Source of the DNA: a virus
Taxonomy: Duplodnaviria; Heunggongvirae; Uroviricota; Caudoviricetes
IMG/VR virus record: IMGVR_UViG_3300037384_000074
Location: 20,112 to 84,111 of that record
Strand: one strand, 5' to 3'
Length of the DNA stretch: 64,000 bases
Under the pieces are notes generated by a model that had not been told where the DNA came from, did not search any database, and saw only the letters and a list, made by a program, of their open reading frames with translations. Made by a program: the position numbers and the translations under genes. Positions 37,812-52,885 of the stretch are shown here, in pieces (the stretch's first letter is position 1; every line of letters starts with the position of its first letter).

Positions 37812-38265
37812 AGAAGTGAAGGCAAACCGCAGGAAGTGGATCGATTTTCTTCGTGAAGATGGCCGTAAGAAAGCGGTCGATGCTCTCGATGTAGGTAATG
37901 AAGAACGTTGCTGCTTAGGTCACGCTTGTTTCGTCCTCGGCGTCGAACAGCATGTCAGTGTTAGCCAGGAAAATTCTAATGGAATCTTTTACGGAAAGGG
38001 ATGGAATTGTGGAGCAGCTCCTGCAGAGCTGATAGAGCTCGTTGGACTAAGAAGCAGTGGCGGTTCATTCGCACCATTCACATTTGCAGTAGAAATGAAC
38101 CTGCAGTCGTTGATGATAACTTCTCTCGCTGAACTCAACGACAAGACCAATTATACGCCAAAAGAAATTGGCGACTTCATTGAGAGCCACTATGACTACG
38201 TGTTCCTCAACGAGGAAGAATATATGGAAAAGTATGAGGTGGTTTCACCGTGGACCCTTCGTTAG
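37777..38265 (+). CDS. hypothetical protein
   Basis: 162-aa ORF; alternative ATGs at 37792 and 37798. Confidence 0.4.
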   Translation: MLKGIMFMLNFEEVKANRRKWIDFLREDGRKKAVDALDVGNEERCCLGHACFVLGVEQHVSVSQENSNGIFYGKGWNCGAAPAELIELVGLRSSGGSFAPFTFAVEMNLQSLMITSLAELNDKTNYTPKEIGDFIESHYDYVFLNEEEYMEKYEVVSPWTLR

Positions 38266-38306
38266 AAATAGCGGAGGGTCCTTTATCAACTGAGGGAGAT
38301 CTTGTC
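38252..38306 (+). promoter_or_regulatory. intergenic cassette copy 1: hairpin + TTTATCAACTGAGGGAGA 5' leader
   Basis: GGACCCT...AGGGTCC stem, then CTTTATCAACTGAGGGAGATCTTGTC ATG. Confidence 0.55.
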
Positions 38307-38464
38307 ATGAAAGACTTCAACGTTAAGCAGGCTCAGCGATGATGATGCGTTCGGACAAGGATTTCGAGCAGTATGTTAAGGAAAATCTACCGAATTCCTA
38401 TGCTGCGAAGAACAAGCTGATGGAAATGCTCCACGAAAAGTTCAAGATCTGAAGGGGTTACACA

Positions 38465-38719
38465 ATGATCGAAGATATCACGAAGACCAGGACTATCGAG
38501 CTGACCGAATGTGAGCTCACCCATCTGTACCACTTGATGCAGATGGTTGGCGGCCATCCTGACAATACTGGCCGGGGAGTAACTGATAGTGTTGGCCGCA
38601 AGATCCACGCTATGATCGATGAGGGTGATGAAGACGAGGGGTTTGAATGGCGCGAAGCTAATATCAGGGGATCGATATATTTCAACGACATCTCACCGAT
38701 CTTCAGGTTTAATGACTAG
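38465..38719 (+). CDS. hypothetical acidic protein
   Basis: 84-aa ORF. Confidence 0.45.
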   Translation: MIEDITKTRTIELTECELTHLYHLMQMVGGHPDNTGRGVTDSVGRKIHAMIDEGDEDEGFEWREANIRGSIYFNDISPIFRFND

Positions 38720-38720
38720 T

Positions 38721-38777
38721 TGTTGACCTTCTCGGAGAAATCTGGGAAGGTCTTTCATCAACTGAGGGAGAGCTCAA
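38721..38777 (+). promoter_or_regulatory. intergenic cassette copy 2
   Basis: TTGACCTTCtcggagaaatctggGAAGGTCTTT then CATCAACTGAGGGAGAGCTCAA ATG. Confidence 0.6.
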
Positions 38778-38951
38778 ATGGCGAAGACGCCCCGTATGTC
38801 GATCGTTTGGGAAGTGCTTGAAGGCGCGAAGGATGCTCAGGACGACGTTGTTATCGCAGCGTGCCGTCGTCTGATTTGGGCGAATACTCTCGGCTGGAAG
38901 CGGCACGCTACTGCCGAAGATAAGGCGCTCGTTTTCGCGTTTGCTAGTTGA
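38778..38951 (+). CDS. small hypothetical protein (57 aa)
   Basis: ATG immediately after the cassette. Confidence 0.35.
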   Translation: MAKTPRMSIVWEVLEGAKDAQDDVVIAACRRLIWANTLGWKRHATAEDKALVFAFAS

Positions 38952-39003
38952 CCTTTAGTCCAAGTTGGAGTAAGGTCAATCTATCAACTGAGGGAGAGAT
39001 CAA
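38950..39003 (+). promoter_or_regulatory. intergenic cassette copy 3
   Basis: GACCTT...AAGGTC hairpin + AATCTATCAACTGAGGGAGAGATCAA ATG. Confidence 0.55.
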
Positions 39004-39117
39004 ATGTATCCGGCTGGGAGTTTCTTGCATGACCCAGTGTTGCTGATCACTCAAGTCGAGGATGATCTCACGATCACTATCCTTAAGGACCGCAGCGGAA
39101 GACTGCGTGATACGTGA
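39004..39117 (+). CDS. small hypothetical protein (37 aa)
   Basis: Follows cassette 3. Confidence 0.25.
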   Translation: MYPAGSFLHDPVLLITQVEDDLTITILKDRSGRLRDT

Positions 39118-39234
39118 CGATATACGTTTATTGAGTGCTGCATAGACGCCAAAAGACCGTAAATAGCGAAATTTGCCCTTGTAAACCACTGTGTTTGCAG
39201 GGGTATTTTTGCGTTTATTCGTGTAATTGACTGT

Positions 39235-39783
39235 TCAGACGTGTTTAAATTTCGGGAATGTATACATTCCACTTGTCGCAAATGTACCTTTGAACCTTGG
39301 ATCTGCACGAAGATATCCGACATCCTTTGTATCTTTACCGCGGAATTCGCGGATCCAAATACCGGTTAGAGCTGCCCCTACGCTGATCTTCTTCGCAAAT
39401 ATCATCTCTTCAAACTCGTGGAAGTGATCTGGAAGGTCATACTTGTCGAAAACGGCACTGTTGCGGATCGGTTCAAGTTTGTATCTGTTGGCGATTCTGT
39501 CACGTGAAAATTCGAGAATCACTGGGAAGTCTGCAGCACGTTGATAGCTTCGTGTGAATGAGATTGTACGCGCTTTCCAAGCACCATCCTCATGATAAGC
39601 CACCTCGACTGCATGTGCTGGGAACTCAATTTGAGGCGGAATAACGGTCCAAGTATTTTGGTTTGAAGAGGAGTGCAGTTCACCGGATTTGATGATGCTT
39701 ACAGCAGCCTTGATATTTGTACCGTGAAAAAGCATATTACGGGCCGATGCGGCTTCGGATATGAATTGAGAGAAGGTTTTCAT
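39235..39783 (-). CDS. ADP-ribosyltransferase-fold protein (diphtheria-toxin/Tpt1-like H-Y-E class), paralogue A
   Basis: N-terminal LFHGTN (the Y/F-H-G-T NAD-binding motif of DT/KptA) with downstream Y and E-F-E-E. One of only two sizeable minus-strand genes in the window. Confidence 0.5.
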   Translation of the reverse strand: MKTFSQFISEAASARNMLFHGTNIKAAVSIIKSGELHSSSNQNTWTVIPPQIEFPAHAVEVAYHEDGAWKARTISFTRSYQRAADFPVILEFSRDRIANRYKLEPIRNSAVFDKYDLPDHFHEFEEMIFAKKISVGAALTGIWIREFRGKDTKDVGYLRADPRFKGTFATSGMYTFPKFKHV

Positions 39784-39808
39784 GACCTATTTATCAACTG
39801 ACATATCA

Positions 39809-40303
39809 TCATTTCAATAGGTCAGACTTGACCGGAAATCCGAAGTGTTCGATTCGCTCGAATGCAGTAGGCGATGCTACGTGGAAGGCTGTTATATAGC
39901 TTCGGATATTAGTCAAGTTTTTGTTAACAATCCGCTCTTCATATTCGTTCATACCGTACACAGGATCGTCCTTTAGATACCGACTCTTCGCCATATGGAA
40001 CGGTACCTGTGTATGATAGAAATTGTAAGTCTGTAACTTGTATCGCTGACGGATTTTTCTTTGGTCGAGCTCTATAACAACAGCATTGATCTTGCTGCGT
40101 GAAAGAGTAGTCGCCCAATCTAAGGCGTATTTGAGACTGCGGGTTAATGATACTACCTTCGTCTTATTGTCATCTTCACCCTCAGATATCCTACCTTCTA
40201 AGGTATTCTGATGCATTATAGACTCGAGTCTATCAACCGTAGTGCCGTGATATAGTGGTGCTGAGTGGCTTTCCGCCAGGAATTCGAGGAAGGTTTTCAT
40301 CAC
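39809..40303 (-). CDS. ADP-ribosyltransferase-fold protein (diphtheria-toxin/Tpt1-like), paralogue B
   Basis: PLYHGTTVDRLESIMHQ..LEG and KVVSLTRS resemble KptA [21 protein letters not shown]...HYVHLS; NEYEE acidic catalytic candidate; shares the MKTF.EF..E N-terminus with paralogue A. Confidence 0.5.
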   Translation of the reverse strand: MMKTFLEFLAESHSAPLYHGTTVDRLESIMHQNTLEGRISEGEDDNKTKVVSLTRSLKYALDWATTLSRSKINAVVIELDQRKIRQRYKLQTYNFYHTQVPFHMAKSRYLKDDPVYGMNEYEERIVNKNLTNIRSYITAFHVASPTAFERIEHFGFPVKSDLLK

Positions 40304-40366
40304 CTATTTATATCCGTTGCCTCAATCTCATTTAGGAGCGATATTATCTTCACGTTCAAATGAGGA

Positions 40367-40591
40367 GTGATTCAAATGACCGATATTATACACGTCGTTC
40401 ATGGTAAAAACATGAGTGCTCGAGTAGTTAATGCTCGTAGTCTCCCTGGGAAGCTCGGTCATTTCGAAGTGCAGAGTGAATACTCCCGCAAGACCAATAT
40501 GTGGAAGTATCATACTGATCGTAGCGGCCACATGAAGACGTTTACAACGAAAGCGCTTGCCGTAGCGGCGGCGAAGCGTATTGTTTGGTGA
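40367..40591 (+). CDS. hypothetical protein
   Basis: AGGAGTGATTCAA ATG leader variant. Confidence 0.4.
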   Translation: MIQMTDIIHVVHGKNMSARVVNARSLPGKLGHFEVQSEYSRKTNMWKYHTDRSGHMKTFTTKALAVAAAKRIVW

Positions 40592-40608
40592 AACGAGGAG
40601 ATACACAA

Positions 40609-40821
40609 ATGTCTGGTCATGCTGTTAACTGGCGCAAGTTCAAGGCTTACGAAAAGCTCCATATGTCTGCGGTCGAGAAGGCTTATCATGAGGGTGGGAA
40701 TGCCGTATATTCCCGCAAGCCCCGGATCAACCCGTATCCTGCCGGCCGTCGTCATGACGAGTGGAATCGAGGATACAATCTTTCGGATCCGCTCGGTGAT
40801 TACTACGGCAGAAATTACTGA
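40609..40821 (+). CDS. hypothetical protein
   Basis: GAGGAG RBS, ATG 40609. Confidence 0.4.
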   Translation: MSGHAVNWRKFKAYEKLHMSAVEKAYHEGGNAVYSRKPRINPYPAGRRHDEWNRGYNLSDPLGDYYGRNY

Positions 40822-40840
40822 TCGTCCGTCAAATAAATGT

Positions 40841-40895
40841 GGACCTTCCTATAGAAATCTGGGAAGGTCTTTTTATCAACTGAGGAGTGATTCAA
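40841..40895 (+). promoter_or_regulatory. intergenic cassette copy 4
   Basis: GGACCTTCC...GGAAGGTC hairpin + TTTTTATCAACTGAGGAGTGATTCAA ATG. Confidence 0.6.
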
Positions 40896-41078
40896 ATGCG
40901 CCCTTATGGTGGAGATCGTACTTATTACGACTGCCGGACTTCCAAGAAGGTTGGTAAGCCGATCAAGGTCGAGCAGGATCACCACGCGAAAAAGTCTCGC
41001 GCTCGTCGTGAGGGCAAGGTTGACCTTCTCGGGGAAATCAGTGAAGGTCCTTTATCAAATGAGGAGAGCACGTCATGA
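40896..41078 (+). CDS. hypothetical protein; its 3' end encodes cassette copy 5
   Basis: 60 aa; the C-terminus KVDLLGEISEGPLSNEESTS is translated from the cassette sequence. Confidence 0.35.
   Translation: MRPYGGDRTYYDCRTSKKVGKPIKVEQDHHAKKSRARREGKVDLLGEISEGPLSNEESTS
41021..41074 (+). promoter_or_regulatory. intergenic cassette copy 5 (embedded in the upstream CDS 3' end)
   Basis: TTGACCTTCtcggggaaatcagtGAAGGTCCTTTATCAAATGAGGAGAGCACGTC ATG. Confidence 0.55.
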
Positions 41079-41263
41079 AGGCCTTCAACATTGAATTCGA
41101 ATTTACTTCGTCGAAGGCCTATGGCGACAATTACAAGCTGTATGCGACTGTGGAAGCGAAGAATGCTGAGCAGGCCCTTAACATCGCGCATATAGTTGGC
41201 TTCAAACAATTCGGTGCGCGGTTTAACGACAACTGCATCGATTGGCGGATCAAGAACGATTGA
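41075..41263 (+). CDS. hypothetical protein
   Basis: 62-aa ORF. Confidence 0.4.
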   Translation: MKAFNIEFEFTSSKAYGDNYKLYATVEAKNAEQALNIAHIVGFKQFGARFNDNCIDWRIKND

Positions 41264-41290
41264 TTGGCCCTACCAAGAGGAGATCGCATC

Positions 41291-41599
41291 ATGAAAACGG
41301 TTCTGGTTCACTACCGCACGAATCCCGACTATTATGATGATGACGTCGAGCTTTACCACGCCGATTATGTTCTCGATGTCGCGAAGCTTCGCGCTGTTGT
41401 TGACACTGATGACTGCTACTATGCTCAGAATGAGATCAAGAAGATCCTGTGGCTCGTTGACAATCCCACGAAGCTCTGCGATCTCCACGAGCACGACAAA
41501 TATACGCTCTATGATACGTCGTGGGAGCTTGAGCTCGTTCTCGCTGATGATCAGGAGAGCAAGGCCGATCTCGAGATCACTGTCCTTCTCAACGCGTGA
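41291..41599 (+). CDS. hypothetical protein
   Basis: AGGAGA RBS, ATG 41291. Confidence 0.45.
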   Translation: MKTVLVHYRTNPDYYDDDVELYHADYVLDVAKLRAVVDTDDCYYAQNEIKKILWLVDNPTKLCDLHEHDKYTLYDTSWELELVLADDQESKADLEITVLLNA

Positions 41600-41617
41600 A
41601 AAGAGGAGTTTCGAATA

Positions 41618-41908
41618 ATGTTTATGGTCTGCGTTTACCATACTGAGTATGGATCTGACAGCATTCATGGTCACATCGACGAATCTACGATGAAACTCGA
41701 AGAAACTGCCGAACGATGTTTCGATCAGATCATCGAGTGGCAGATCGGTGGTGGAGGAAATTCCTTCGAAGGATATACGTTCTCTCACTACCGGATCTTC
41801 GAGATCAAACACTCCAAATTCGTTCCGTTCCGCACGTATCATGACCTCGATGATTTCCTGGCCGATATGCGGCAGCGGAAAATCAAAGTCAAATTATACA
41901 CGATTTAA
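41618..41908 (+). CDS. hypothetical protein
   Basis: 96-aa ORF. Confidence 0.45.
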   Translation: MFMVCVYHTEYGSDSIHGHIDESTMKLEETAERCFDQIIEWQIGGGGNSFEGYTFSHYRIFEIKHSKFVPFRTYHDLDDFLADMRQRKIKVKLYTI

Positions 41909-41926
41909 TGAACAGGAGTTACTACA

Positions 41927-42430
41927 ATGCGTAGTATCAAAATTTCCAATGGCATGAAGATCTGTATTGAGAACTCGATCGTTCCTCGAGGCCAGTCAAT
42001 CTTCATTGAGACTGCCGAAGGTCCAGCCTACAGGAGCTCTAGTGTCGCTGAGTTTCTTATCAGGCTCGAAGCTGGGCGATACCTCGAGCGTACCGACTAC
42101 GTTGATATCATCTCTCTCTGGTTTGGCCAGGAGAACAACACGAAGATCGATGCCTATATTCGGAACACCGTGACAGGCGGATTCTATCGTTTCAATTGCG
42201 ATTATCCGGATCAGCCCAATTGTCTCAAGCTGTTTGATGCTACTGGAGGCCGTGGAGATTACATCTTCGAGAAAGATTCGATGCCTTATGAGCGAGACAA
42301 TCTCGAGGTCACTGAATATAAGATCTACGCGTTTCCGACCGGCCGAAAAGTCTATGAAAACGGTACTCTTGTCGGTTATGACAGGCACGGCGATAAGATC
42401 AAGGAAGAAGTTGAAGAGGATTTCGACTAA
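41927..42430 (+). CDS. hypothetical protein
   Basis: 167-aa ORF. Confidence 0.5.
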   Translation: MRSIKISNGMKICIENSIVPRGQSIFIETAEGPAYRSSSVAEFLIRLEAGRYLERTDYVDIISLWFGQENNTKIDAYIRNTVTGGFYRFNCDYPDQPNCLKLFDATGGRGDYIFEKDSMPYERDNLEVTEYKIYAFPTGRKVYENGTLVGYDRHGDKIKEEVEEDFD

Positions 42431-42621
42431 TGGCACAACATTGCGCAGCGTGTGGAAGAGCACTTATTCGCGGCGATACGAGGTGGGAATCGGCTATATA
42501 CGGCTCGCATCACATCCTATGCGAACCATGTGGTCACGATGAAGAGCAGTTGATTGACAATGTCGGAACGAATGACCTTCCGAACATTCTCGAGCTCTAT
42601 GGCCCGCCAAATGATCGATAA
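42430..42621 (+). CDS. small zinc-ribbon protein
   Basis: CAACGR...CEPCGH, two Cys pairs. Confidence 0.4.
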   Translation: MAQHCAACGRALIRGDTRWESAIYGSHHILCEPCGHDEEQLIDNVGTNDLPNILELYGPPNDR

Positions 42622-42679
42622 CAGTGGACCTTCTCGGAGAAATCTGGGAAGGTCTTTTATCAACTGAGGGAGAGACCAA
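42621..42679 (+). promoter_or_regulatory. intergenic cassette copy 6
   Basis: ACAGTGGACCTTCtcggagaaatctggGAAGGTCTTTTATCAACTGAGGGAGAGACCAA ATG. Confidence 0.6.
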
Positions 42680-42886
42680 ATGTCGACCGAAACCAAGTTC
42701 GTTCTGTTCAACATGCATCGCAAGCAGTATGTCACGAAGGTTTTCACGCACTCTCATGACCTCCAAAATGCTATGCAGTGGGACAGTTTTGCTGAGGCGT
42801 GCATTGCGCTTGATATCTTCTCTGAAGCGCAGGCTGAAATGATCGAGATTCGTGAGCTTCGGATCTCGTATAGCATCGTTGGTTAA
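42680..42886 (+). CDS. hypothetical protein
   Basis: 68-aa ORF. Confidence 0.4.
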   Translation: MSTETKFVLFNMHRKQYVTKVFTHSHDLQNAMQWDSFAEACIALDIFSEAQAEMIEIRELRISYSIVG

Positions 42887-42900
42887 TCAGGAGAGATCCA

Positions 42901-43176
42901 ATGTTCGCAATTCGTCGCAAGTCTGATCGAGCGTTTGCTGGCTTCACAACTTACGCAACGCGCGATGGATATGTTGAAGTGTCAATCACTTTCGCCGACT
43001 GGAAGGAAACGATCGCTGTCTTCCGGGAGAGGGTAGAAGCGATAAGCGCAGTCGATCCTAGTATACGGTCCGGGGAATTTCTAAAGTCGTTGGAATATCC
43101 TTCTCGTGAGCGCGATTTTCGTGACGCAATCGATGCAGATGACGTCGAAATCGTTGATCTGACTCCCGCAACGTAA
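42901..43176 (+). CDS. hypothetical protein
   Basis: 91-aa ORF. Confidence 0.4.
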   Translation: MFAIRRKSDRAFAGFTTYATRDGYVEVSITFADWKETIAVFRERVEAISAVDPSIRSGEFLKSLEYPSRERDFRDAIDADDVEIVDLTPAT

Positions 43177-43213
43177 TATGCAGTAGTTAACAATAGTTTG
43201 ACAGGAGAGCAAT

Positions 43214-43564
43214 ATGCTCACTAAGCAAGAAATTTTTACCAAGGCGTATGAGGGTCTTAAGGCCCAAGGCTTTGAAAAATCTGCTGGATATGACCTCAGC
43301 GGCAATTTTACATGCATGTATCGCTTTGACAATTTGAAGTGCGCTATCGGCCATTGTATCCCTGACGAGAGGTACAATACTGACCTCGAAAATATCAGAG
43401 CACGTGATCCGATGATTCGTCGGGCTGCAGGGATCCACCCTGACGTGCCAGATGAGTGGCTGGTTGATCTTCAGCATTGCCATGACGCGTCGTTGGATCC
43501 TGAAGATATGAAGCTGCGCCTCTCCGATTTCGCCAGATTTTACGATCTCAAGATCGAGGAATGA
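43214..43564 (+). CDS. hypothetical protein, tandem paralogue 1 of 3 (MLTKQEIF family)
   Basis: MLTKQEIFTKAYEGLKAQGF...CAIGHCIPDE conserved in three consecutive genes. Confidence 0.5.
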   Translation: MLTKQEIFTKAYEGLKAQGFEKSAGYDLSGNFTCMYRFDNLKCAIGHCIPDERYNTDLENIRARDPMIRRAAGIHPDVPDEWLVDLQHCHDASLDPEDMKLRLSDFARFYDLKIEE

Positions 43565-43567
43565 CGA

Positions 43568-43918
43568 ATGCTAACTAAGCAGGAAATCTTCAATAAGGCG
43601 TATGCCGGCCTTAAGGCGCAGGGCTTTCAGCGAGCTGTTCGTGATGCTGGTCCGTTAGCAATTTGTCAGTATCGTGGAAGAAATGGTCTCAAGTGTGCTA
43701 TCGGTCACTTGATTCCTGATGAGAATTACTGCCCAACACTCGAAGGTAAAGGCGCTGAACTATTAGTTGTTCGTGAGGCTGCGAATATTCCACTTGACGT
43801 GCCAATTAGCTTCCTTGTTGATCTTCAGACGTGCCATGACGCTGGCAGTTCTCCGGAAGCGATGAAGCGGTCACTGACCGTGTTTTCTCATCAGTATAAT
43901 CTCAAGATTGAGGATTGA
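43568..43918 (+). CDS. hypothetical protein, tandem paralogue 2
   Basis: MLTKQEIFNKAYAGLKAQGF...CAIGHLIPDE. Confidence 0.5.
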   Translation: MLTKQEIFNKAYAGLKAQGFQRAVRDAGPLAICQYRGRNGLKCAIGHLIPDENYCPTLEGKGAELLVVREAANIPLDVPISFLVDLQTCHDAGSSPEAMKRSLTVFSHQYNLKIED

Positions 43919-44277
43919 AAATGCTTACCCAACAGGAAATCTTTAATAGGGTGTATACCGGTCTTAAGGCTCAAGGCTTTAAGAGGTCGCTTTCAGGGCC
44001 CGATGATGCCGTTTCACGGTGTCGATATCGTGGCGAGGATGGTCTCAAGTGTGCTATTGGGCACCTGATTCCTGATGAAAAATATGAAGAGGGTTTGGAA
44101 GGTCTATGTGCTTCTGTTGTTGAAGTTCGTAACGCTTCAGGCACTAGCGGGATCGATTGGAACTTTCTCGATGATCTCCAGGTTTGCCATGACGAGGGTA
44201 ACACTCCTGCAGATATGGAGAGACTCCTTAAGCGTTTTGCTGCAGATTACGAGCTCGTCATCGAGGAATCGATTTGA
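43915..44277 (+). CDS. hypothetical protein, tandem paralogue 3
   Basis: LTQQEIFNRVYTGLKAQGF...CAIGHLIPDE. Confidence 0.5.
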   Translation: MKMLTQQEIFNRVYTGLKAQGFKRSLSGPDDAVSRCRYRGEDGLKCAIGHLIPDEKYEEGLEGLCASVVEVRNASGTSGIDWNFLDDLQVCHDEGNTPADMERLLKRFAADYELVIEESI

Positions 44278-44531
44278 TGGAGCTGATCCTTATACTATCA
44301 TGGTGGCTTGTTGGTATCATCTCAAGCATCATCTTTTGGTGGTGCGCCGCATCTAAGGGTGAGCCATTTACTACAGCAACTTTCTGCCGCTGTTTGCTAT
44401 TTGGTCTCGCTGGTTGGATTGTAACATATGTACTTGTTACATTTTTTCTTGTATATATCTGTGTAAAGATATATGATAGATACGACAAGTTTATGAAGGA
44501 TCGTGAGTGGAATGTTTGGTTCAGGCGATGA
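44274..44531 (+). CDS. small membrane protein (family with 44912 and 49697)
   Basis: Two TM helices, W-rich (FWWCAASKGEPF). Confidence 0.45.
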   Translation: MMELILILSWWLVGIISSIIFWWCAASKGEPFTTATFCRCLLFGLAGWIVTYVLVTFFLVYICVKIYDRYDKFMKDREWNVWFRR

Positions 44532-44728
44532 GTGACGACCTTATTCGAAAGATACGAGCTACGACTCCGGATCAACTCGCGAGAGAATTACTACTTGTTC
44601 AGCCAATGCCTAACAATACGTTTGAGGTGTTGTATAACGAATCCAAGAGTCAAGCAGAATTGAAGGCGGAGGGATATAAGCCCGTATCCAGCCTTGGTCT
44701 AATGTGGATTAAAGACAATGACAGTTGA
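44507..44728 (+). CDS. hypothetical protein (paralogue of 45686)
   Basis: Shared C-terminal LGLMWIKDND / GLLWIKKEDP. Confidence 0.4.
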   Translation: MECLVQAMSDDLIRKIRATTPDQLARELLLVQPMPNNTFEVLYNESKSQAELKAEGYKPVSSLGLMWIKDNDS

Positions 44729-45964: not shown

Positions 45965-46140
45965 GAAGATCGAAGAGTTCGCGAAGGAGAAAGGTTTGGA
46001 TCCTATTCTCCTCCGGCTTTTTCTAAGAGGTCTTCGAGCGAAGGCGCCTTCGAACACTCTGGTCCAGGCTGCAAGAATGCACGGCGAAGATCAAGGATCC
46101 CAGTCCAATGTTTCTGATATACTCTGTGGAAGGAAACCAG

Positions 46141-46428
46141 ATGAGCGGTGAACTCGAACCTGATGCCTGGGATCTACTCGGAAGAGATTCTGAGAGTGAC
46201 CTGCTGGTCCTGAAGAAGAGGGAAGGAGCTTGTCTCTATAGCATCGCTCTGTCCCTGAAGCGTATCGCTGATGCTCTCACCGATGAAGAAGGCATCGGCA
46301 AGAAACTCGGGGCCGACTTCATCGAGTCGATAATCCACACTTCTGCAAACTGCTACGGCGAGAACATAGTCGAAGGAATGCAGAATAGCATCGAACGCGG
46401 CCTCCGTGGCATCAACACCAACCGATAA
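46141..46428 (+). CDS. hypothetical protein
   Basis: ORF 46108-46428 in the track; ATG 46141 avoids a long overlap. Confidence 0.35.
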   Translation: MSGELEPDAWDLLGRDSESDLLVLKKREGACLYSIALSLKRIADALTDEEGIGKKLGADFIESIIHTSANCYGENIVEGMQNSIERGLRGINTNR

Positions 46429-46522
46429 GAATGTGAACTTCGTTAGTCACATCTGACAAATATGGTTTACGAAGTTCCCAAATGTGATATGATGAAATTG
46501 TCTCAAACAGAAGGCTACTAAA

Positions 46523-46672
46523 ATGGCTAACATCGTCTACCGCGACAATGCTTTCGAACCGATCGACTGGAAGTATCTCGACATCGACACCGAGATCCAG
46601 TACAAGGAGAACGAGTTCGGCACCATCATCATGGCTTCCTCTGTCGAAGAGGCTGGTCTCGAAGATGCATGA
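46523..46672 (+). CDS. small hypothetical protein (49 aa)
   Basis: GAAGG RBS; start of a chain of three ATGA-coupled mini-ORFs. Confidence 0.3.
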   Translation: MANIVYRDNAFEPIDWKYLDIDTEIQYKENEFGTIIMASSVEEAGLEDA

Positions 46673-46784
46673 GAATTATACACTTCGAGAACGCCTGCCG
46701 CTAATTGAGTATGAGTCTGTAGAATGGATGAAGGTTCATCGTCAGCCGTTCATTGACGCGCTAATAGCGGCTAATTCGCTATGA
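46669..46784 (+). CDS. small hypothetical protein (38 aa)
   Basis: ATGCATGA overlap. Confidence 0.25.
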
Positions 46785-46945
46785 CTGTCAATGTCAAAGA
46801 GTTGATCAAATTGCTCGAAAAGTATCCAGAAGATACTGAAGTGATTATTGATATCGGTCTTGAAAATGTGCCGATTAGTATCAAATACCGCGAAATCAAG
46901 AGTCTCAGATACAACATCGCTGACAAGAAATTGATTATTGGGTGA
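46781..46945 (+). CDS. small hypothetical protein (54 aa)
   Basis: ATGA overlap. Confidence 0.3.
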   Translation: MTVNVKELIKLLEKYPEDTEVIIDIGLENVPISIKYREIKSLRYNIADKKLIIG

Positions 46946-47007
46946 TCGGCACTATTGACCTTCGTCATAAAGGTCGTATAATACTCTCTTAAACAGGGAG
47001 ATAACTT

Positions 47008-47238
47008 ATGGCCAATCTCAAGGGAACTCTGGAAGTTGAAGCGGTAATTGATAGCCGAAAGGGTCTTTCGGAAGATTTCGTACCGGCAGGCTCCATTGGA
47101 TATGTTCTCGGAGTTCATCCCAATGGAGCCGATTGGCTCGTGCACTGGCCTAACGCCGAACGAGCCTACAAGTCTGATTGCCGCACATCTTCGCATGCGA
47201 AGATTACTCTTCGCCCTACAGGCAATCGTCATCCTTGA
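47008..47238 (+). CDS. hypothetical protein
   Basis: GGAGATAACTT ATG. Confidence 0.4.
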   Translation: MANLKGTLEVEAVIDSRKGLSEDFVPAGSIGYVLGVHPNGADWLVHWPNAERAYKSDCRTSSHAKITLRPTGNRHP

Positions 47239-47256
47239 CGATAGACTAAATAGACG

Positions 47257-47706
47257 ATGATCACTTTCAACCAATACATCACCGAGCTCTTCGATAAGGC
47301 CGCACCATACCAGATAGTAAATGAGAAGCTCACTCATTTTGGAGGGTACGTAAGATATCATTTCGAAATTGACTCGCTACAATACGACGCTTATGTTACA
47401 TACTCGTCCAAAGACAAGAGTATCAGCGTGGATTTTAAGCTAAAAAGATCCGATGGAACCTCAACTGTAGAAACTACAGGTGAAGCTGGTCACGACGCAT
47501 CTCTAAAGGTGTTCGGAACGTTAGCTGAGATATTGAGACACGCTCTCGGTAAATGGCCAAAAGCCAGAATCTTGTTCAATGGCGATGGCGATTCTAGAGT
47601 CAAACTGTACCGATCTCTCGGCATGAAGATAGCAAAGATCCTTGGATATAATTACGAGGCTGATGGCGGCGGCAACCATATTTCGATAACACTGACGCCA
47701 AAATAA
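47257..47706 (+). CDS. hypothetical protein, 149-aa family copy A (paralogue of 51979-52428)
   Basis: MITFNQYITELFDK...TTGEAGH...VKLYRSLGMK...TLTPK; about 55% identical to copy B. Confidence 0.5.
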   Translation: MITFNQYITELFDKAAPYQIVNEKLTHFGGYVRYHFEIDSLQYDAYVTYSSKDKSISVDFKLKRSDGTSTVETTGEAGHDASLKVFGTLAEILRHALGKWPKARILFNGDGDSRVKLYRSLGMKIAKILGYNYEADGGGNHISITLTPK

Positions 47707-47765
47707 CAGTGGTCTTCTAATTCAAAATATGATAATCTCCATTAGTTGATAATGGAGATTATCAA
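47707..47765 (+). promoter_or_regulatory. intergenic cassette copy 7 (first 36 nt identical to 52427-52462)
   Basis: ACAGTGGTCTTCTAATTCAAAATATGATAATCTCC then hairpin TCTCCATTA..TAATGGAGA and ATCAA ATG. Confidence 0.55.
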
Positions 47766-48026
47766 ATGTCGATTTTTGACAAAATCCAGAACCGAGAGTA
47801 TGTTAACAAGATGACATATTCATTTGATACTCGAGACGATTATGATGACGAAGGTAATCGCCTGTTTTGGCTGTTTAAGTGCGATCTTGAATCTTACTTT
47901 AGTCAAACTGGAGAGCCGAAGGCGGACATGCTTTTCGAAATAGCCTGTGAATTGGCTCGCAGCAGACATCCGCGCCCTTGCCGACAAGTCGGAGGAGGCG
48001 GAGAGTTGGACGATTCTGTGCTTTGA
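47766..48026 (+). CDS. hypothetical protein
   Basis: 86-aa ORF. Confidence 0.35.
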   Translation: MSIFDKIQNREYVNKMTYSFDTRDDYDDEGNRLFWLFKCDLESYFSQTGEPKADMLFEIACELARSRHPRPCRQVGGGGELDDSVL

Positions 48027-48284
48027 CGACCCTCCGCCTACCCCGGAAGGATACACCCTTGAAGTTCAATGTCAGATGACTGAAGAACGTAATTTCCGAC
48101 AAAAGGTCTTTATCCGAGTCTGTAGAGATAGCGGTTTCAAACTAGAACCGAGTAGAGCCGCACAGTTTGCGGCTCAACTTATTGGTATACATCCGTTTGA
48201 AATCCTAAACGCAATCGGCTGTCTCAACACAATGAACCAGATCGCAGATGGCACTCATCCTGTACTACAAATGGAAGAATATAA

Positions 48285-48650
48285 ATGATCAAGCCTGGAA
48301 CATACACCCAAAATCCATACCAGTCCCATTATGGCCAGGGATCTCTATTAATTGCAGATGAGTTGATTGGCAGAATTCTCGACGACGACTGTATGGCTGT
48401 TCTCTGGAGCTACGATCCACACTGCATCCGAGTATCAACAGGATCGTTGACGTGTGACGGCCACTCTAATCGGATTACAGTGATCGTTAGCCAGCTTGGA
48501 CGTGTCGAAGGCGTTTGGTGGGAGCATAATATATACCTGCCAGATGATGTTAAGGGTGGATCTGGTTCACTAAGACATCGTATGAAGAGCAATCCACAGC
48601 TACTCGATCAGATCGATCTTGACAGGGCTGACCGTTATAGGAGAGTTTGA
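48285..48650 (+). CDS. hypothetical protein
   Basis: 121-aa ORF. Confidence 0.4.
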   Translation: MIKPGTYTQNPYQSHYGQGSLLIADELIGRILDDDCMAVLWSYDPHCIRVSTGSLTCDGHSNRITVIVSQLGRVEGVWWEHNIYLPDDVKGGSGSLRHRMKSNPQLLDQIDLDRADRYRRV

Positions 48651-48651
48651 C

Positions 48652-48801
48652 GTGAATCTGCAAGAAATTTTCGATAAGGTATATCTCGGTCTCAAACAAC
48701 AGAACTTCGATAAGTCGATCAATGTTATACATGGGACTCGAACCTGTCAGTACCGTGAAGTCCATGTAAATAATTTTGTAGCTCAGGAAACGGCCGCATG
48801 A
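48652..48801 (+). CDS. truncated fourth member of the MLTKQEIF family (GTG start)
   Basis: NLQEIFDKVYLGLKQQNFDKS; AGGAGAG RBS before GTG 48652. Confidence 0.3.
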   Translation: MNLQEIFDKVYLGLKQQNFDKSINVIHGTRTCQYREVHVNNFVAQETAA

Positions 48802-48974
48802 TTAACTGGTTTAAAGATCGATATTGGCCAATGGAATATGTCGAATTTGATTTCATTGACATCGTATCCGGAAACAGTGTCAATCGATATCGCACCGCCG
48901 GCACCGGCCAGATTGTGATGGCTGAAAGTCGTTGGTCATTTTTCCGAGTTCCTTCGTCAAAAGGTGTGAAATGA
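48798..48974 (+). CDS. small hypothetical protein (58 aa)
   Basis: ATGA overlaps at both ends. Confidence 0.3.
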   Translation: MINWFKDRYWPMEYVEFDFIDIVSGNSVNRYRTAGTGQIVMAESRWSFFRVPSSKGVK

Positions 48975-49453
48975 ATATCGAACGGTTGATCGAAATCGCT
49001 GAAATCCTCGAGACGCGATCCTACACTGAGCAATTTGATGTAGGATTCAACATGGCGTATGTTATTACGCCAGCCGCCGAACCAACCCACCTAGGCCCTT
49101 TGACAAATAAGGAGGAGCATGAGTGTGGGACGACCTGCTGTATTGCAGGTATCGCTGCGCTTAGATACCGGCCGGAAATGTTCCACAAAGATTACGTCAT
49201 TTATGATTCAGTATTCATCAGCCCGTTGTATGGCGTAGTTGATATTGCCGAGGAGGTTCTTGGGCTAGATTCCGAAACGGCAGAAAGTCTGTTCTTTCCG
49301 TTGGATGGAATAGTCGCAGGCAGCAACATTAATTGGCGTGACATCAAACCTGAGACTGCTGCCAAAGTGATTCGTAATTTGGTCGCAACTGGTAAGGTTG
49401 ATTGGACAACTCCCGTACTCGAGCAGATAGCTGAGACAGCACCACATCTATAG
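48971..49453 (+). CDS. hypothetical protein, Cys-motif family copy A (paralogue of 53312-53743)
   Basis: MNIERLIEIAEILETRSY...CGTTCCIAG shared with 53312. Confidence 0.5.
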   Translation: MNIERLIEIAEILETRSYTEQFDVGFNMAYVITPAAEPTHLGPLTNKEEHECGTTCCIAGIAALRYRPEMFHKDYVIYDSVFISPLYGVVDIAEEVLGLDSETAESLFFPLDGIVAGSNINWRDIKPETAAKVIRNLVATGKVDWTTPVLEQIAETAPHL

Positions 49454-49596
49454 GAGCATTAACAATGTATATCGTTTATTCGTTCGGCGACTACTATTTG
49501 ACATCTATTCCGGAAACGTGGACATGTCCTGGCCCTTCGGACAGTGTTACGCTGATTCCAGGAACCCTGGACCCCAACGAAGATTGAAACAAATTC

Positions 49597-49680
49597 ACTA
49601 GGTATGCAGAATGGGGCTGCCGGCTGCTCATAACGGTCTCCCGCAAGGGCGAGTAGGTTCGATTCCTACACCTAGTACCA
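49597..49680 (+). tRNA. tRNA-like gene, anticodon CAU (Met or Ile-lysidine), encoded CCA, atypical long variable arm
   Basis: 7-bp acceptor stem ACTAGGT/ACCTAGT; D arm GCAG-aatgggg-CTGC; anticodon loop CUCAUAA; T arm GTAGG-TTCGATT-CCTAC; discriminator A then CCA. A 14-nt variable arm and A at position 8 are atypical. Confidence 0.5.
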
Positions 49681-49696
49681 ATTTCCAGAGGTTGTT

Positions 49697-49969
49697 ATGA
49701 TTATAGTTGTCTGGTTTGTTGTGGGGTTTGCGTCCTCAGTATATCTGTGGCGGATAATGTCTTATGATCACTCTGACTTCAAAGTGTCATCCTTAATTGG
49801 ATGTTTACTGGCCGCAATTCCTGCTCCTATCACTTTTGGTGTGGCAGTTGTAAGTGCTATTGTCGAGCTGGCGATGTGGCTATATGACTTGGCCGTCAAC
49901 TGCGACCTCAACAAAGTGATTATTCGAAGAAAGCCAAAATATGGAAACTACGACAATGTCAGATTCTGA
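49697..49969 (+). CDS. small membrane protein (family with 44274 and 44912)
   Basis: Two TM helices. Confidence 0.45.
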   Translation: MIIVVWFVVGFASSVYLWRIMSYDHSDFKVSSLIGCLLAAIPAPITFGVAVVSAIVELAMWLYDLAVNCDLNKVIIRRKPKYGNYDNVRF

Positions 49970-50321
49970 ACCTGAAGATCCGCTACTGAACAGACTCCGA
50001 GCACTGGCGCTTGATGCCAGTCTTTCCGATGGATGGGAAGACACTGAAGCTGATATTCTATTAGCAGTGGAGATTATCAAGAATCTCACGGCTTTCAATC
50101 TGGCCTCTCTCGAGAAAGACAAGACTCATCGTGAAGAGTTGGAACGTTATATCAAGATGATCAAGGATCTTGAAGAGCAGATCAACAAAAAGGACGAAGC
50201 TCTCGATTGGTATGATGAGCACGGTGCTGGTTGTCGTAAACTAGGTAGTGTCGGCGATCCGTTTCGCCACGCACTTGATGCAGATGGCGGAAAGCGAGCT
50301 CGTGAAGCTAGAATGTGTTGA
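49956..50321 (+). CDS. hypothetical protein
   Basis: ORF 49941-50321; acidic N-terminus, coiled-coil. Confidence 0.4.
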   Translation: MSDSEPEDPLLNRLRALALDASLSDGWEDTEADILLAVEIIKNLTAFNLASLEKDKTHREELERYIKMIKDLEEQINKKDEALDWYDEHGAGCRKLGSVGDPFRHALDADGGKRAREARMC

Positions 50322-50371
50322 CCTTAAACTGATGAAGTGATATGATCCTTTATCAACCAAGGGAGACTCCA
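50318..50371 (+). promoter_or_regulatory. cassette copy 8 carrying a sigma70-like promoter
   Basis: TTGACC-N17-TATGAT, then CCTTTATCAACCAAGGGAGACTCCA ATG. Confidence 0.5.
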
Positions 50372-50581
50372 ATGACGATGATTGTGCACTATCCGTCCAA
50401 GAAAGTCCTGAAGGAAAATATCGGCGAGAAGCTCAACTATACCGAGACGTCGATGTTCGGTGAAGAATACAAGAGCAACGGAACTTTTGCTGTCGCGAAT
50501 CGGCCGCATATTACCAAGATTGGTCGAGAATTTTTCGCTGAAGTGACGATGGAAAATGATCTGATCAAGAAGGTCGTTTGA
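50372..50581 (+). CDS. hypothetical protein
   Basis: 69 aa from ATG 50372. Confidence 0.4.
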   Translation: MTMIVHYPSKKVLKENIGEKLNYTETSMFGEEYKSNGTFAVANRPHITKIGREFFAEVTMENDLIKKVV

Positions 50582-50592
50582 GTCGTCAGTTA

Positions 50593-50620
50593 ATACCCTG
50601 GAGAATTCTCCAGGGTATTT
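50593..50620 (+). terminator. palindromic hairpin, possible terminator
   Basis: ATACCCTGGAGAATTCTCCAGGGTAT perfect palindrome followed by TTG. Confidence 0.4.
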
Positions 50621-50651
50621 GCGGGTGTCTTGCCCTGTTTGGAGAAGTCAA

Positions 50652-50807
50652 ATGAACCTTCGTCAGATGAAGACCAATGAACTTGCCCTACTTTTGCACG
50701 GCCTTCGTGCTGTTATGGTTGCTGATGAGGAAGAAACTCGTCAGCGATTGATTTCGAAGCTGGAAAGCGAGCTTGCGGCGCGTGGAGTAGCACTCGCCGA
50801 AGTGTGA
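50652..50807 (+). CDS. hypothetical protein
   Basis: GGAGAAGTCAA ATG. Confidence 0.35.
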   Translation: MNLRQMKTNELALLLHGLRAVMVADEEETRQRLISKLESELAARGVALAEV

Positions 50808-50812
50808 AACTA

Positions 50813-50873
50813 ACAGTGGGCCCTCTTCCGGAAATGGTAGAGGGTCTTTCTGCGTTCAGAACAGGAGATCAAT
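50813..50873 (+). promoter_or_regulatory. intergenic cassette copy 9
   Basis: ACAGTGGGCCCTCT...AGAGGGTCTTT hairpin + CAGAACAGGAGATCAAT ATG. Confidence 0.5.
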
Positions 50874-51233
50874 ATGTCACGGAACTTCAACGTCACCGCA
50901 ATTTATGTGATCACCGAGCAGGTTCCAGTTCCGGATCATTCAGGAAATCCATACACACCTGAAGTATATAAAGCTGGTACAATTTGCGCTCTCGGAGAGG
51001 ATCGTGAATGGTATCTCTATACCCATAGATTCACTGATGAAGGCGATCTACATTCCAGCTCATGGCCTCGAATCAATAAAGGACTTATCAGTCTGTTTCG
51101 TGATTATTGGCGCGTCATAGTGCACGATGATCATCTATATCTACCTTCTGATCGGATTTCTCCTATTAATAAGTCATTTAAGGCTGCTAAAAAGCGCCTT
51201 ATCAAGGGCACTCATGTTAAGGGAGTTGTGTGA
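50874..51233 (+). CDS. hypothetical protein
   Basis: 119-aa ORF. Confidence 0.45.
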   Translation: MSRNFNVTAIYVITEQVPVPDHSGNPYTPEVYKAGTICALGEDREWYLYTHRFTDEGDLHSSSWPRINKGLISLFRDYWRVIVHDDHLYLPSDRISPINKSFKAAKKRLIKGTHVKGVV

Positions 51234-51433
51234 TGACACATTATGCTTTAGCAATATGTGAGAACCGCAGGTGGTCGGTAGTTGCATCACACTCATTATA
51301 TGGAGTCCTTTTAGGTACACGGGATTCCTTATATGATCAAATTCCAATTAAAATGACCAAAATCCTTGTTTTGGAGACGGCCGACCAAGAGGAGATTGAT
51401 CGACGAATCGCAGAATTGAACCGAAAGAAATAA
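51230..51433 (+). CDS. hypothetical protein
   Basis: ATGA overlap. Confidence 0.4.
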   Translation: MMTHYALAICENRRWSVVASHSLYGVLLGTRDSLYDQIPIKMTKILVLETADQEEIDRRIAELNRKK

Positions 51434-51494
51434 TAGTGGACCCTCTTCCAGAAATGGTGGAGGGTCTTAATATGTTCGGTTGAGGAGACATCAA
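51434..51494 (+). promoter_or_regulatory. intergenic cassette copy 10
   Basis: TAGTGGACCCTC...GAGGGTCTT hairpin + GAGGAGACATCAA ATG. Confidence 0.5.
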
Positions 51495-51683
51495 ATGTTG
51501 AAGCTCTGGGAAGTTCGGCAGGATGGTAAGCGAGTCGCTACTTATTACGCGAAGAATGAAAAGCATGCAGTGCAGCGTCATAAGGATGACCAGATGCAAT
51601 ATGCAGCTTCCTTTCGACGTTCCCATGGAATCGGCACACTCGAAAATCTGACCGCTGTTCAGATTGAACCTCATAAGGATTGA
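51495..51683 (+). CDS. hypothetical protein
   Basis: 62-aa ORF. Confidence 0.4.
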   Translation: MLKLWEVRQDGKRVATYYAKNEKHAVQRHKDDQMQYAASFRRSHGIGTLENLTAVQIEPHKD

Positions 51684-51955
51684 ATATGAATGCTCCTTTA
51701 ATTTCTAAGGTTGATCGTCCACTCAAAGGAGTGGATCTATCGCCGTACCTCCCTGATCTAATCAAATTCGACCAGCCTCCATTCGTGCTCGAAATTGGTC
51801 CTTTGGATGAACTTCGGGCTCGAATTTGGCCTCAGTTGGCTGAGCGAACGGTACTAACGCTTGTCTGCATCACTCGTGAAATATACCGAGAGTTGGCGCT
51901 CAGAGCGTTGATGGGTGAATATGTGCCAGAGTATAATGGGGTTGACACCAAGTGA
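51680..51955 (+). CDS. hypothetical protein
   Basis: ATGA overlap. Confidence 0.4.
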   Translation: MNMNAPLISKVDRPLKGVDLSPYLPDLIKFDQPPFVLEIGPLDELRARIWPQLAERTVLTLVCITREIYRELALRALMGEYVPEYNGVDTK

Positions 51956-51978
51956 TTTAATTATCTCATAAATAATCG

Positions 51979-52428
51979 ATGATCACTTTCAACCAATATC
52001 TCACTGAACTCTTTGACAAAGCTGTGCCGTACCAGTCGGTAAAGACTACAATAAACAGCTATGGAAGCTTCACTAAATTTAAATTTACAGTTGGTTCGCA
52101 CTATTTCGAAGTCAATATAGCTTATACGACAGGTGATAATAACATCGAAGTAGACTTTTACCTACTAAACCCTGATGGCAGCACGACAGTAAAAACTACA
52201 GGGGAGGCTGGTCATCAGGTTTCCGTAAAAGTATTTGCCACTGTGGCTGACATTCTCAAGCATGCTCTCAAGAATTGGCCAAATGCTAGAATCACGTTTA
52301 TTGGAGATGGTTTATCTAAAGTAAAACTGTACCGATCTCTTGGGATGAAATTAGCGAAAGTCCTCAATTACAAATATGATGAGCGCGGTGCAGGTGATTG
52401 GATCGGAGTCGTCCTAACACCAAAATAA
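51979..52428 (+). CDS. hypothetical protein, 149-aa family copy B
   Basis: Same length as copy A, with a shared N-terminus (MITFNQY.TELFDKA.PYQ) and C-terminus (KLYRSLGMK). Confidence 0.5.
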   Translation: MITFNQYLTELFDKAVPYQSVKTTINSYGSFTKFKFTVGSHYFEVNIAYTTGDNNIEVDFYLLNPDGSTTVKTTGEAGHQVSVKVFATVADILKHALKNWPNARITFIGDGLSKVKLYRSLGMKLAKVLNYKYDERGAGDWIGVVLTPK

Positions 52429-52486
52429 CAGTGGTCTTCTAATTCAAAATATGATAATCTCCTTTATCAACTGAGGGAGAGTTCAA
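52429..52486 (+). promoter_or_regulatory. intergenic cassette copy 11
   Basis: ACAGTGGTCTTCTAATTCAAAATATGATAATCTCC + TTTATCAACTGAGGGAGAGTTCAA ATG. Confidence 0.55.
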
Positions 52487-52885
52487 ATGTCCATGTCATT
52501 CATCGGCGCAAAGCGTTCCTCGAACAATAACCTTGTTCCTGTCTATGACCTTGTGAAGATCCTCAACGAACGGATCTATGGAGATCCTCTTGATGTCGAG
52601 GACATGGGTGAACCCAATCCTTACTACGAGCCTGATGCTGATTTCAATGTAGCTAGCGGAAATGCTAAGTGGATCATCGAAGATCTCCTCGGTTACAAGA
52701 TCGAGGATGGCTACGTTGAGATGGAGATCGAAGATCTCGAGAGGAGAATCGTTGAAGCTTCTTCGAAGCTATCGAGCAGAAAATATTATTCGGAACGTAA
52801 TTATGCTATGAGCTTCTTCGTCCGGACGAAGAAGCTCATCGACTTCTCCCAGGCACGTGGTGCCACACATATCTATGGAGCCTAA
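52487..52885 (+). CDS. hypothetical protein
   Basis: 132-aa ORF. Confidence 0.45.
   Translation: MSMSFIGAKRSSNNNLVPVYDLVKILNERIYGDPLDVEDMGEPNPYYEPDADFNVASGNAKWIIEDLLGYKIEDGYVEMEIEDLERRIVEASSKLSSRKYYSERNYAMSFFVRTKKLIDFSQARGATHIYGA

Follow-up and report, generated by a model that had tools for sequence, protein, structure and literature searches.

What are the near-identical sequences that recur between the small genes of a phage, and what do they do there? The question is raised by a 64,000-nucleotide (nt) stretch of DNA (hereafter the window; positions 20,112 to 84,111 of IMG/VR record IMGVR_UViG_3300037384_000074) in which the interval from 35 to 57 kb is a dense series of open reading frames (ORFs) of 30–170 amino acids (aa), nearly throughout on the + strand, to which neither Pfam nor PHROG assigns a function. 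An original prediction held that these ORFs are separated by at least 11 copies of one mobile-looking cassette composed of a hairpin and a conserved leader. The analysis described here suggests that the elements probably are intercistronic expression cassettes that double as recombination joints among the accessory genes of a jumbo phage related to T4. Confidence is higher than this for the recombination part, which is comparative, and lower for transcription termination and masking of the Shine-Dalgarno (SD) sequence, which are predicted.

Composition of the cassette family

The repeat is genuine, but has the form of a two-slot mosaic instead of a single unit. Slot 1 (~30 nt) is occupied by a hairpin in eight copies, five of them intact, one with a single mismatch, one a variant and one decayed within an ORF, and by a sigma70-like promoter in five (c7, c8, c11 and the copies at 46955 and 56581). 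Slot 2 is the leader TTTATCAACTGAGGGAGAG-N3-AAATG, which was found in 8–9 copies and not in every copy as proposed. Hairpin and canonical leader stand together only in c1–c6; c9 and c10 possess the hairpin with a leader of another kind, the leader of 46955 also differs, the promoter is combined with a TTTATCAACTGAGGGAGAG-type leader in c8, c11 and 56581, and c7 has only its 5' part in common with c11. An (A)CAGTGG opening follows a TAA stop codon in five copies, but is not present in the others. All copies are on the + strand between 38.2 and 56.6 kb. One further promoter-type copy lies beyond the range 38252–52492 given initially. The copies are as follows.

c1, 38250..38310, + strand: hairpin with 13-bp stem and GAAA loop (-23 kcal/mol; 69.7 bits); the stop codon of ORF 37777–38265 lies within the 5' arm, and the canonical leader TTTATCAACTGAGGGAGAT is followed by an ORF of a mere 11 codons.
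c2, 38722..38780, + strand: hairpin type, 5' arm GTTGACC with -35-like TTGACC (77.8 bits); leader TTTCATCAACTGAGGGAGAG precedes the ATG of a 57-aa ORF.
c3, 38947..39006, + strand: variant hairpin TTGACCTT...AAGGTCAA with another inner stem (63.6 bits), readable as TTGACC-N17-TAAGGT; canonical leader.
40354..40378, + strand: leader-only half copy TTCAAATGAGGAGTGATTCAAATG, matching the c4 leader at 21/23 positions (weak, 11.6 bits).
c4, 40839..40898, + strand: hairpin type with one inner mismatch (73.6 bits).
c5, 41019..41077, + strand: decayed hairpin (z = -0.34; -10.6 kcal/mol; 63.6 bits), read, as had been noticed, as the C-terminus of upstream ORF 40896–41078, whose stop codon overlaps the following ATG (ATGA).
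c6, 42620..42682, + strand: consensus copy, with TAA-CAGTGG, 13-bp hairpin, GAAA loop and leader TTTTATCAACTGAGGGAGAGACCAAATG (83.5 bits).
46955, 46954..47010, + strand: promoter-type relative, TTGACC-N16-TATAAT (11/12 match), leader non-canonical; CTCTCT 3' of the -10 pairs with SD AGGGAG.
c7, 47705..47768, + strand: 5' part as in c11 (TAACAGTGGTCTTCTAATTCAAAATATGATAATCTCC, putative extended -10 TGaTAATCT), then a 15-bp perfect hairpin with the SD buried within (z = -4.8).
c8, 50317..50374, + strand: promoter in place of the hairpin, TTGACC-N17-TATGAT as first described plus an upstream TG; leader CCTTTATCAACCAAGGGAGAC (21.5 bits).
c9, 50812..50876, + strand: CCCTC/GAGGG-subfamily hairpin, GAAA loop, different leader TTCTGCGTTCAGAACAGGAGAT (56.6 bits).
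c10, 51432..51497, + strand: CCCTC/GAGGG-subfamily hairpin (68 bits).
c11, 52427..52489, + strand: promoter-type 5' part common to c7, canonical leader (35.5 bits).
56581, 56580..56639, + strand: new promoter-type copy, GTTGACC-N16-TATAGT-CCTTATATCGTCAATTGGGAGAAATCAAATG (18.2 bits, E = 0.03).

The leader is far more frequent than expected. When up to three mismatches were allowed, TTTATCAACTGAGGGAGAG occurred six times in comparison with 0.03 expected. These six are confined to the interval 38.2–52.5 kb and to the + strand, and a looser search added leaders at 40872 and 41051. A repeat finder placed six 63-nt copies in one group in which c2 and c6 are 92% identical. A covariance model, the check suggested with the original prediction, was built on the eight hairpin copies and used to scan the whole window with filters off. 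The hairpin copies scored 57–84 bits, the additional matches were c11, c8 and the new copy at 56576–56639, and neither the minus strand nor the half of the window with the replication genes (1–36 kb) had a credible match. That the cassettes are long near-identical repeats is signaled independently by assemblies from the same sample: Logan contigs L104, L105 and L141 (SRR36367014, same phage) terminate exactly in c2 or c6 (window 38722 and 42628–42656). The cassettes thereby account for assembly breakage in these phages, as repeats of this kind fragment de Bruijn assemblies of the lineage.

The ORFs that adjoin the cassettes are mutually unrelated, known paralogs excepted. The exception includes c7 and c11, which are located downstream of paralogous 149-aa genes (63% nt and 55% aa identity). 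It had been noted that the two copies share sequence although the genes beside them diverged; this stands, but the identity extends over 47 nt and not 36.

Recombination junctions in related phages

Relatives were recovered by protein searches with the ORFs of the cassette region, as follows.

L130, Logan SRR27946986: ~56–89% aa identity.
L131, ENA ERZ27315062: 92–97% nt identity, in blocks collinear with window 43.1–54.1 kb.
L132 to L134, Logan SRR25435835 and others: ~70% nt identity.

Absence of the motif from related phages had been named as a sign against the original prediction, but cassettes are present in all three related metagenomic phages. The junctions at which these phages differ provide evidence for recombination. 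L132 is ~98% identical to L130 (760–975) through a gene of the 149-aa family and a promoter-type module up to CTCTTTATCAACTGA; beyond this switch it is 100% identical to a different part of L130 (2140 onward), from TATCAACTGATGGAGAG into the 57-aa ORF. L132 is a clean recombinant of two L130 cassettes with the crossover inside TATCAACTGA, the leader core. In the second comparison, L131 contains 1.29 kb that is not in the window, comprising three ORFs and a hairpin cassette like c6. On one side of this extra DNA is a 132-aa ORF and on the other the 5' part of c11, which forms the left edge of the indel. The indel is bounded by two leader copies that have TTATCAACT in common. In two independent comparisons, the crossovers are confined to ~10 nt inside the leader core. 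Elsewhere in L131, c8 is identical to that of the window, c9 and its two flanking genes are missing, and a replacement begins directly 3' of the c10 hairpin, beyond which the next two ORFs are absent.

Genes also were found with exchanged upstream modules. Slot 1 before the 57-aa ORF holds the c2 hairpin in the window, GTGGACC...TAAGCTCC in L130 and TTGTCC...GAAACTCT in L132. That hairpin is upstream of the ORF in the window and downstream of it in both L130 and L132, which is an indirect hint of excised circles. The 132-aa ORF is preceded by c11, a c6-like hairpin or a c9-like hairpin across three phages. Moreover, alleles that have diverged to 70–77% aa identity adjoin cassettes between genes that are 97–98% identical.

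Several observations weigh against the cassettes as recombination joints. The relatives are short metagenomic contigs only, and each event could be either an insertion or a deletion. Two of the four junctions between the window and L131 (J1 and J2) comprise 3–5-nt microhomology or stop codons with no involvement of a cassette, and other differences, such as an array of paralogs and those at 45.2–46.7 kb, lack cassettes at their edges. The two cassette-free junctions also favor the alternative that the cassettes are purely expression signals, whose likeness arises from selection for one optimal terminator and ribosome-binding-site design or from recent local duplication, with the rearrangements being incidental. 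This alternative gains further from TCAAATG start contexts and GGAG SDs at non-cassette genes and from the origin of c7 and c11 within a gene duplication. Yet it is confronted with crossovers placed so precisely inside the leader core, with three different slot 1 modules at one gene, and with 63-nt stretches of up to 92% identity in copies between unrelated ORFs. Pairing alone does not fix the sequence of the inner stem, which nevertheless is identical across phages, as the c2 hairpin is the same in the window, L130 and L132. Overall, expression signaling as the sole role of the cassettes is unlikely, and the dual reading as expression cassettes and recombination joints is preferred.

Further observations concern the c7 palindrome, the 57-aa ORF and the paralog array. 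The loop of the c7 palindrome is GTTGA (window 47727–47767) and TCAAC in L131 (4538–4586), the palindrome being flipped. The L131 version is only three bases from the canonical leader, and hence c7 derives from the leader. Homologs of the 57-aa ORF with 66–79% identity (L135–L140) are located on soil contigs of 59–61% GC, in tightly overlapping operons from which cassettes are absent, and the homolog on L139 is near a gene with an Acb2/Tad1-hairpin domain; the 57-aa ORF looks horizontally acquired. The tandem paralog array (43214–44277, 48652–48801) consists of three 116–120-aa paralogs and a truncated fourth, and is composed differently in L131 (89–1139, 2753–3097), where an extra copy is found elsewhere. 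The arrangement indicates rapid paralog turnover without cassettes.

More distant searches were negative. The 38–53 kb interval produced zero DNA matches by megablast against 50,697 phage records, blastn with c6 yielded chance hits only, exact or degenerate leader or hairpin patterns gave just singleton chance hits that lacked the hairpin context in IMG/VR, JGI metagenomes and GTDB genomes, and INPHARED likewise was negative. Relatives sought in IMG/VR with the 149-aa ORF or the DNA ligase of the window included none closer than 30%. The cassette is absent from 42 kb around the ligase gene of Sinorhizobium jumbo phage Phosso. Phosso has promoters and hairpins of its own in that interval, and the SD is buried in some of them.

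Hairpin, promoter and leader as probable expression signals

The GC-rich hairpin is as real as was proposed, but is longer than described, with a 12–13-bp stem and a GAAA tetraloop that are intact in c1, c2, c6, c9 and c10. These copies fold at -17 to -23 kcal/mol. In an alignment of the eight window copies with four from relatives, pairing is retained in 89.5% of cells, compensatory changes are present in 6/13 pairs, and a GNRA tetraloop is kept in 11/12 copies. The ortholog of c10 in L131 has a compensatory replacement of A-U by U-A. The covariation score was matched in 0/500 shuffles, and pairing collapsed in a control in which partner columns were shifted. The G.U pairs occupy ~16 cells. 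The + strand RNA folds better than the - strand in 8/8 copies by 1–10 kcal/mol (median ~6), the advantage being 4–10 kcal/mol for six copies and smaller for the variant c3 (3.1) and the decayed c5 (1.2), whereas for six ordinary hairpins or terminators of the window the strand difference is -3.5 to +2.8 kcal/mol with mixed sign. The covariation, the G.U pairs and the better folding of + strand RNA together point to a hairpin that works at the mRNA level and not as a DNA site. A search of Rfam with the cassette returned no family. An outer helix between CAGT/AGTTG and leader CAACT/ACTG appeared in some folds, and was discarded as inconsistent among copies.

Alignment of all copies with MAFFT placed GT(T/G)GACC of the 5' arm under the -35 element of the promoter copies and the GAAGGT in its 3' counterpart under the -10. 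The distance to the ATG is 24–27 nt from the end of the stem and 25–28 nt from the end of the -10 in four promoter copies (~27 in c7 by identity with c11). Thus, hairpin and promoter are alternative occupants of one slot, with the same leader after both, and as the stem ends so near to the ATG no promoter fits between the hairpin and the SD. The promoters in 46955 and c8 match at 10–11/12 positions, and that of c7 and c11 probably is an extended -10, TGaTAATCT.

This shared register favors the proposal that the hairpin copies act as DNA, either as weak promoters (T[T/G]GACC-N17-[G/T]AAGGT), as promoters for a phage-modified polymerase, or as operators whose inverted repeat would be bound by a dimeric regulator. 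Both arms fall exactly on the -35 and -10 of the bona fide promoter copies, 5/6 positions of the -35 are kept in c2, c3, c5 and L130, the hexamer at the -10 position keeps A2 and T6, and L130 holds TGGACC-N17-TAAGCT where the window has c2. However, the -10 hexamer matches at 2–3/6 positions only, pairing is unbroken along the 13-bp stem, spacer included, and shows compensatory changes, many G.U pairs would become A.C mismatches in the opposite strand, and the conserved tetraloop and the greater stability of the + strand RNA in every copy likewise run counter to a DNA site, making this proposal quite improbable. As the arms retain most of the -35, A2 and T6 of the -10 and the 17-nt spacing, a bifunctional role for the slot is left as a secondary possibility. 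In this tentative and rather unlikely scheme the 30-nt slot would be a switchable, and perhaps simultaneously bifunctional, terminator and promoter in which the hairpin arms serve as -35 (T[T/G]GACC) and -10 ([G/T]AAGGT) at 17-nt spacing, and because the arms take up the positions of the two hexamers, one to three point mutations would convert terminator to promoter or the reverse. If so, the lineage would rewire which accessory ORFs are expressed by read-through and which by themselves, with slot 1 modules swapped by crossover in the invariant leader, possibly via excised ORF circles during co-infection.

At the mRNA level the hairpin is unlikely to be an efficient terminator. Only 3–5 T residues are present in the 8 nt 3' of the stem, and nearly none in the L131 ortholog of c10. 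As only c4, with a TTTTT tail, passed a standard terminator scan, the hairpins are regarded as attenuators and/or protectors of 3' ends. The intercistronic position also would suit endonuclease sites for RNase III, RNase E or, at the GGAG of the leader, a RegB-like enzyme, at which polycistronic early mRNA would be either divided into monocistronic units or inactivated. However, RNase III would find a stem of 13 bp short, and none of the genes of the window was identified as encoding a nuclease. The combination of GGAG with an A-rich stretch resembles strong T4 RegB sites (PMC3014915), but processing leaves the register shared with promoters unexplained, and we consider nuclease sites very improbable.

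The promoter copies are associated with a different predicted behavior of the SD. A transcript initiated at the promoter would start at about the A of TTTATC, such that the leader would be its 5' untranslated region. In four of the five promoter copies (c7, c11, 46955 and 56581), a C/T-rich stretch just 3' of the -10 pairs with the SD when folded in silico, and the probability that the SD is unpaired is 0.00–0.07 in read-through RNA compared to 0.22–0.98 in RNA from the predicted start. In these copies, read-through RNA is predicted to be untranslatable and promoter-initiated RNA to be translated. In hairpin copies the corresponding probability in read-through RNA is 0.25–0.77 in 7/8, the exception being c1.

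When these strands are combined, a hairpin in slot 1, with its short and interrupted U-tract, would attenuate read-through transcription and/or protect the 3' end of the upstream message and, by occupying the bases beside the leader, would leave the downstream SD open. A promoter in slot 1 would start a transcript at the first bases of the leader, and in four of the five promoter copies the read-through RNA would be SD-masked so that only promoter-initiated RNA is translated, as in T4 genes e, soc and 49 and I-TevI. Slot 2 would provide the shared, unstructured leader with a strong SD (TTTATCAACTGAGGGAGAG-N3-AAATG). Because the cassettes offer 10–60 nt of near-identical sequence in a single orientation between unrelated ORFs, the phage recombination system would cross over at them, and ORFs would be deleted, inserted or re-partnered with their expression signals unbroken. 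The exchange is likely to be driven by homology and not targeted by an enzyme; the description 'mobile-looking' applies in so far as the evidence fits recombination at shared homology, and does not extend to an autonomous mobile element. On the debit side of the expression component are c8, which lacks SD masking, c1, in which the SD is closed, the short U-tracts that make efficient intrinsic termination doubtful, and the transcription starts, which are predictions from the position of the -10. The least credible alternative, sites of a dedicated site-specific system with its own recombinase, either integron attC-like or resembling a miniature inverted-repeat transposable element as a selfish element, would account for an array of small promoter-less ORFs with hairpin-forming repeats between them and for a cassette-ORF-cassette module around the 57-aa ORF in three contexts, but is highly improbable given that target-site duplications and terminal inverted repeats are both absent, the cassettes always point in the direction of transcription, a good hairpin forms only in sense RNA, crossovers fall in the leader rather than the hairpin, and a partial, non-exhaustive scan of the ORFs turned up no recombinase.

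The cassettes mark the exchange points of accessory, and possibly host-interaction, ORFs, they furnish recombinant junctions at nucleotide resolution from natural populations, and they constitute a small natural set of parts, namely hairpin, promoter and leader, whose interchange is directly testable.

Other features of the window were recorded alongside the cassettes. An (A)TAAATA box stands 3–5 nt before the ATG of long SD-less ORFs at 51968, 47247 and 60624 (+ strand) and 40311 and 39794 (- strand), and at L130 449. The ORFs are of 149, 149, 456, 163 and 182 aa, TTGATAAATAGGT is common to 39794(-) and 60624(+), and ATAAATA-N2-6-ATG has five matches compared to 1.3 expected. The box looks like a T4-late-type promoter so near to the start codon that the mRNAs would be nearly leaderless. 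ARAGORN called an 84-nt tRNA-Met (CAT) with a long extra arm at 49597–49680 (+ strand) that is 97% conserved in L131 and has no match to the Rfam tRNA model even at E<=10; the call is either false or marks a tRNA-like gene of an unusual kind. Three 141-nt tandem repeats with 74% identity (61112–61525) lie inside ORF 60621–62006, in a segment of 55% GC unlike the rest of the window. Upstream of the cassettes, duplicated segments of gene ends and junctions (36238–36326 with 37518–37606, and 36662–36701 with 37717–37756; 81–85% identity) include a conserved TAGTAGGTAACAAATG junction. A perfect 12-bp palindrome, AATACCCTGGAG/CTCCAGGGTATT, that is unique, intergenic and outside the family is located at 50583–50650.

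Comparison with known systems

The window derives from a large phage and has genes for ribonucleotide reductase, a DnaB-like helicase, a split family-B DNA polymerase, an NAD-dependent DNA ligase and RNA ligases. The best match of the ligase is in Phosso (42% aa), followed by that in Agrobacterium phage Atu_ph07. With replication genes like those of the T4 superfamily, the phage is a distant jumbo relative of T4-type phages outside the classical T4-like group.

Several known elements resemble the cassettes in part. In common with Rho-independent terminators, the hairpin has a GC-rich tetraloop stem followed by T residues directly 3' of a stop codon, but the short T-tract has interruptions, and the c9/c10 subfamily does not conserve it. 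The ordinary terminators of the window (32440, 37267, 57078 and 60586) are unique sequences that fold about equally on either strand. Integron attC sites have a tyrosine recombinase adjacent to them, and their crossover is centered on a hairpin of folded single-stranded DNA. In the cassettes, crossovers are in the leader and not in the hairpin, which is clearly weaker on the other strand. Hairpins of the C(UUCG)G type, reportedly noted in T4 intercistronic regions by Tuerk and colleagues in 1988 and said to have a proposed role in termination and mRNA stability, likewise are very stable tetraloop hairpins between cistrons of early or middle phage mRNAs, whereas the cassette loop is of the GNRA class (GAAA) and the whole hairpin is repeated as a family that is tied to a fixed leader. 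T4 e, soc, 49 and I-TevI have an SD-sequestering hairpin with an internal promoter (PMC3014915). The same design was detected in silico in c7, c11, 46955 and 56581, but not in c8, with the 5' arm overlapping the -10 or start and the 3' arm holding the SD. Unlike these T4 hairpins, the promoters of the cassettes are sigma70-like and of early type, and not the late TATAAATA, and the design recurs in a repeated cassette.

The closest counterpart is the promoter-early stem-loop (PeSL) element to which the cassettes were likened at the outset. To our knowledge, PeSLs have been described only in classical T4-like phages. In these elements, a stem-loop is located just upstream of a complete sigma70 promoter that is followed by the SD and ATG, and an AT-rich, UP-like tract precedes the -35 (PMC4122927). 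Another property of PeSLs is that recombination between the elements on either side of a gene can produce excised mini-circles. PeSLs are enriched in hyperplastic regions of T4-type phages (PMC4122927, PMC2839356), crossovers occur between the -10 and the SD/ATG, and lacZ fusions established that the stem-loop terminates and that the promoter is strong (PMC2839356). Phages with PeSL or PmSL elements include RB49/phi1, T4/PST and KVP40/nt-1 (PMC2839356, PMC4122927). The likeness holds for location, building blocks and recombination behavior. The cassettes are a repeated intergenic motif in a hyperplastic block of ORFans (38.2–56.6 kb) whose gene content varies among relatives. Their parts are a stem-loop, a sigma70-like promoter, an SD and an ATG, and close relatives differ by indels and replacements with crossovers between the -10 and SD/ATG, two other junctions not being cassette-linked. 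The likeness fails for architecture. Stem-loop and promoter are in tandem in PeSLs, but are mutually exclusive in one 30-nt slot of the cassette, and the AT-rich tract is absent, as the stop codon of the upstream ORF falls anywhere from 14 nt within the stem to 19 nt ahead of it, and the sequence before that is coding. The stem is GGACC(Y)TC... with a GAAA tetraloop in place of the G4...C4 or A3G3...C3T3 of PeSLs, and the leader is both the most conserved part of the cassette and the part at which crossover occurs. The sole PeSL-like composite of stem-loop and promoter in the window is a unique intergenic hairpin outside the family (46430–46522), whose 3' arm carries the -35 (TTTACG) with TG-TATGAT thereafter. 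The cassette family is best filed, from comparison of sequences, as PeSL-like in behavior, yet distinct and more compact, and extends cassette-mediated gene shuffling to a distant lineage of soil jumbo phages.

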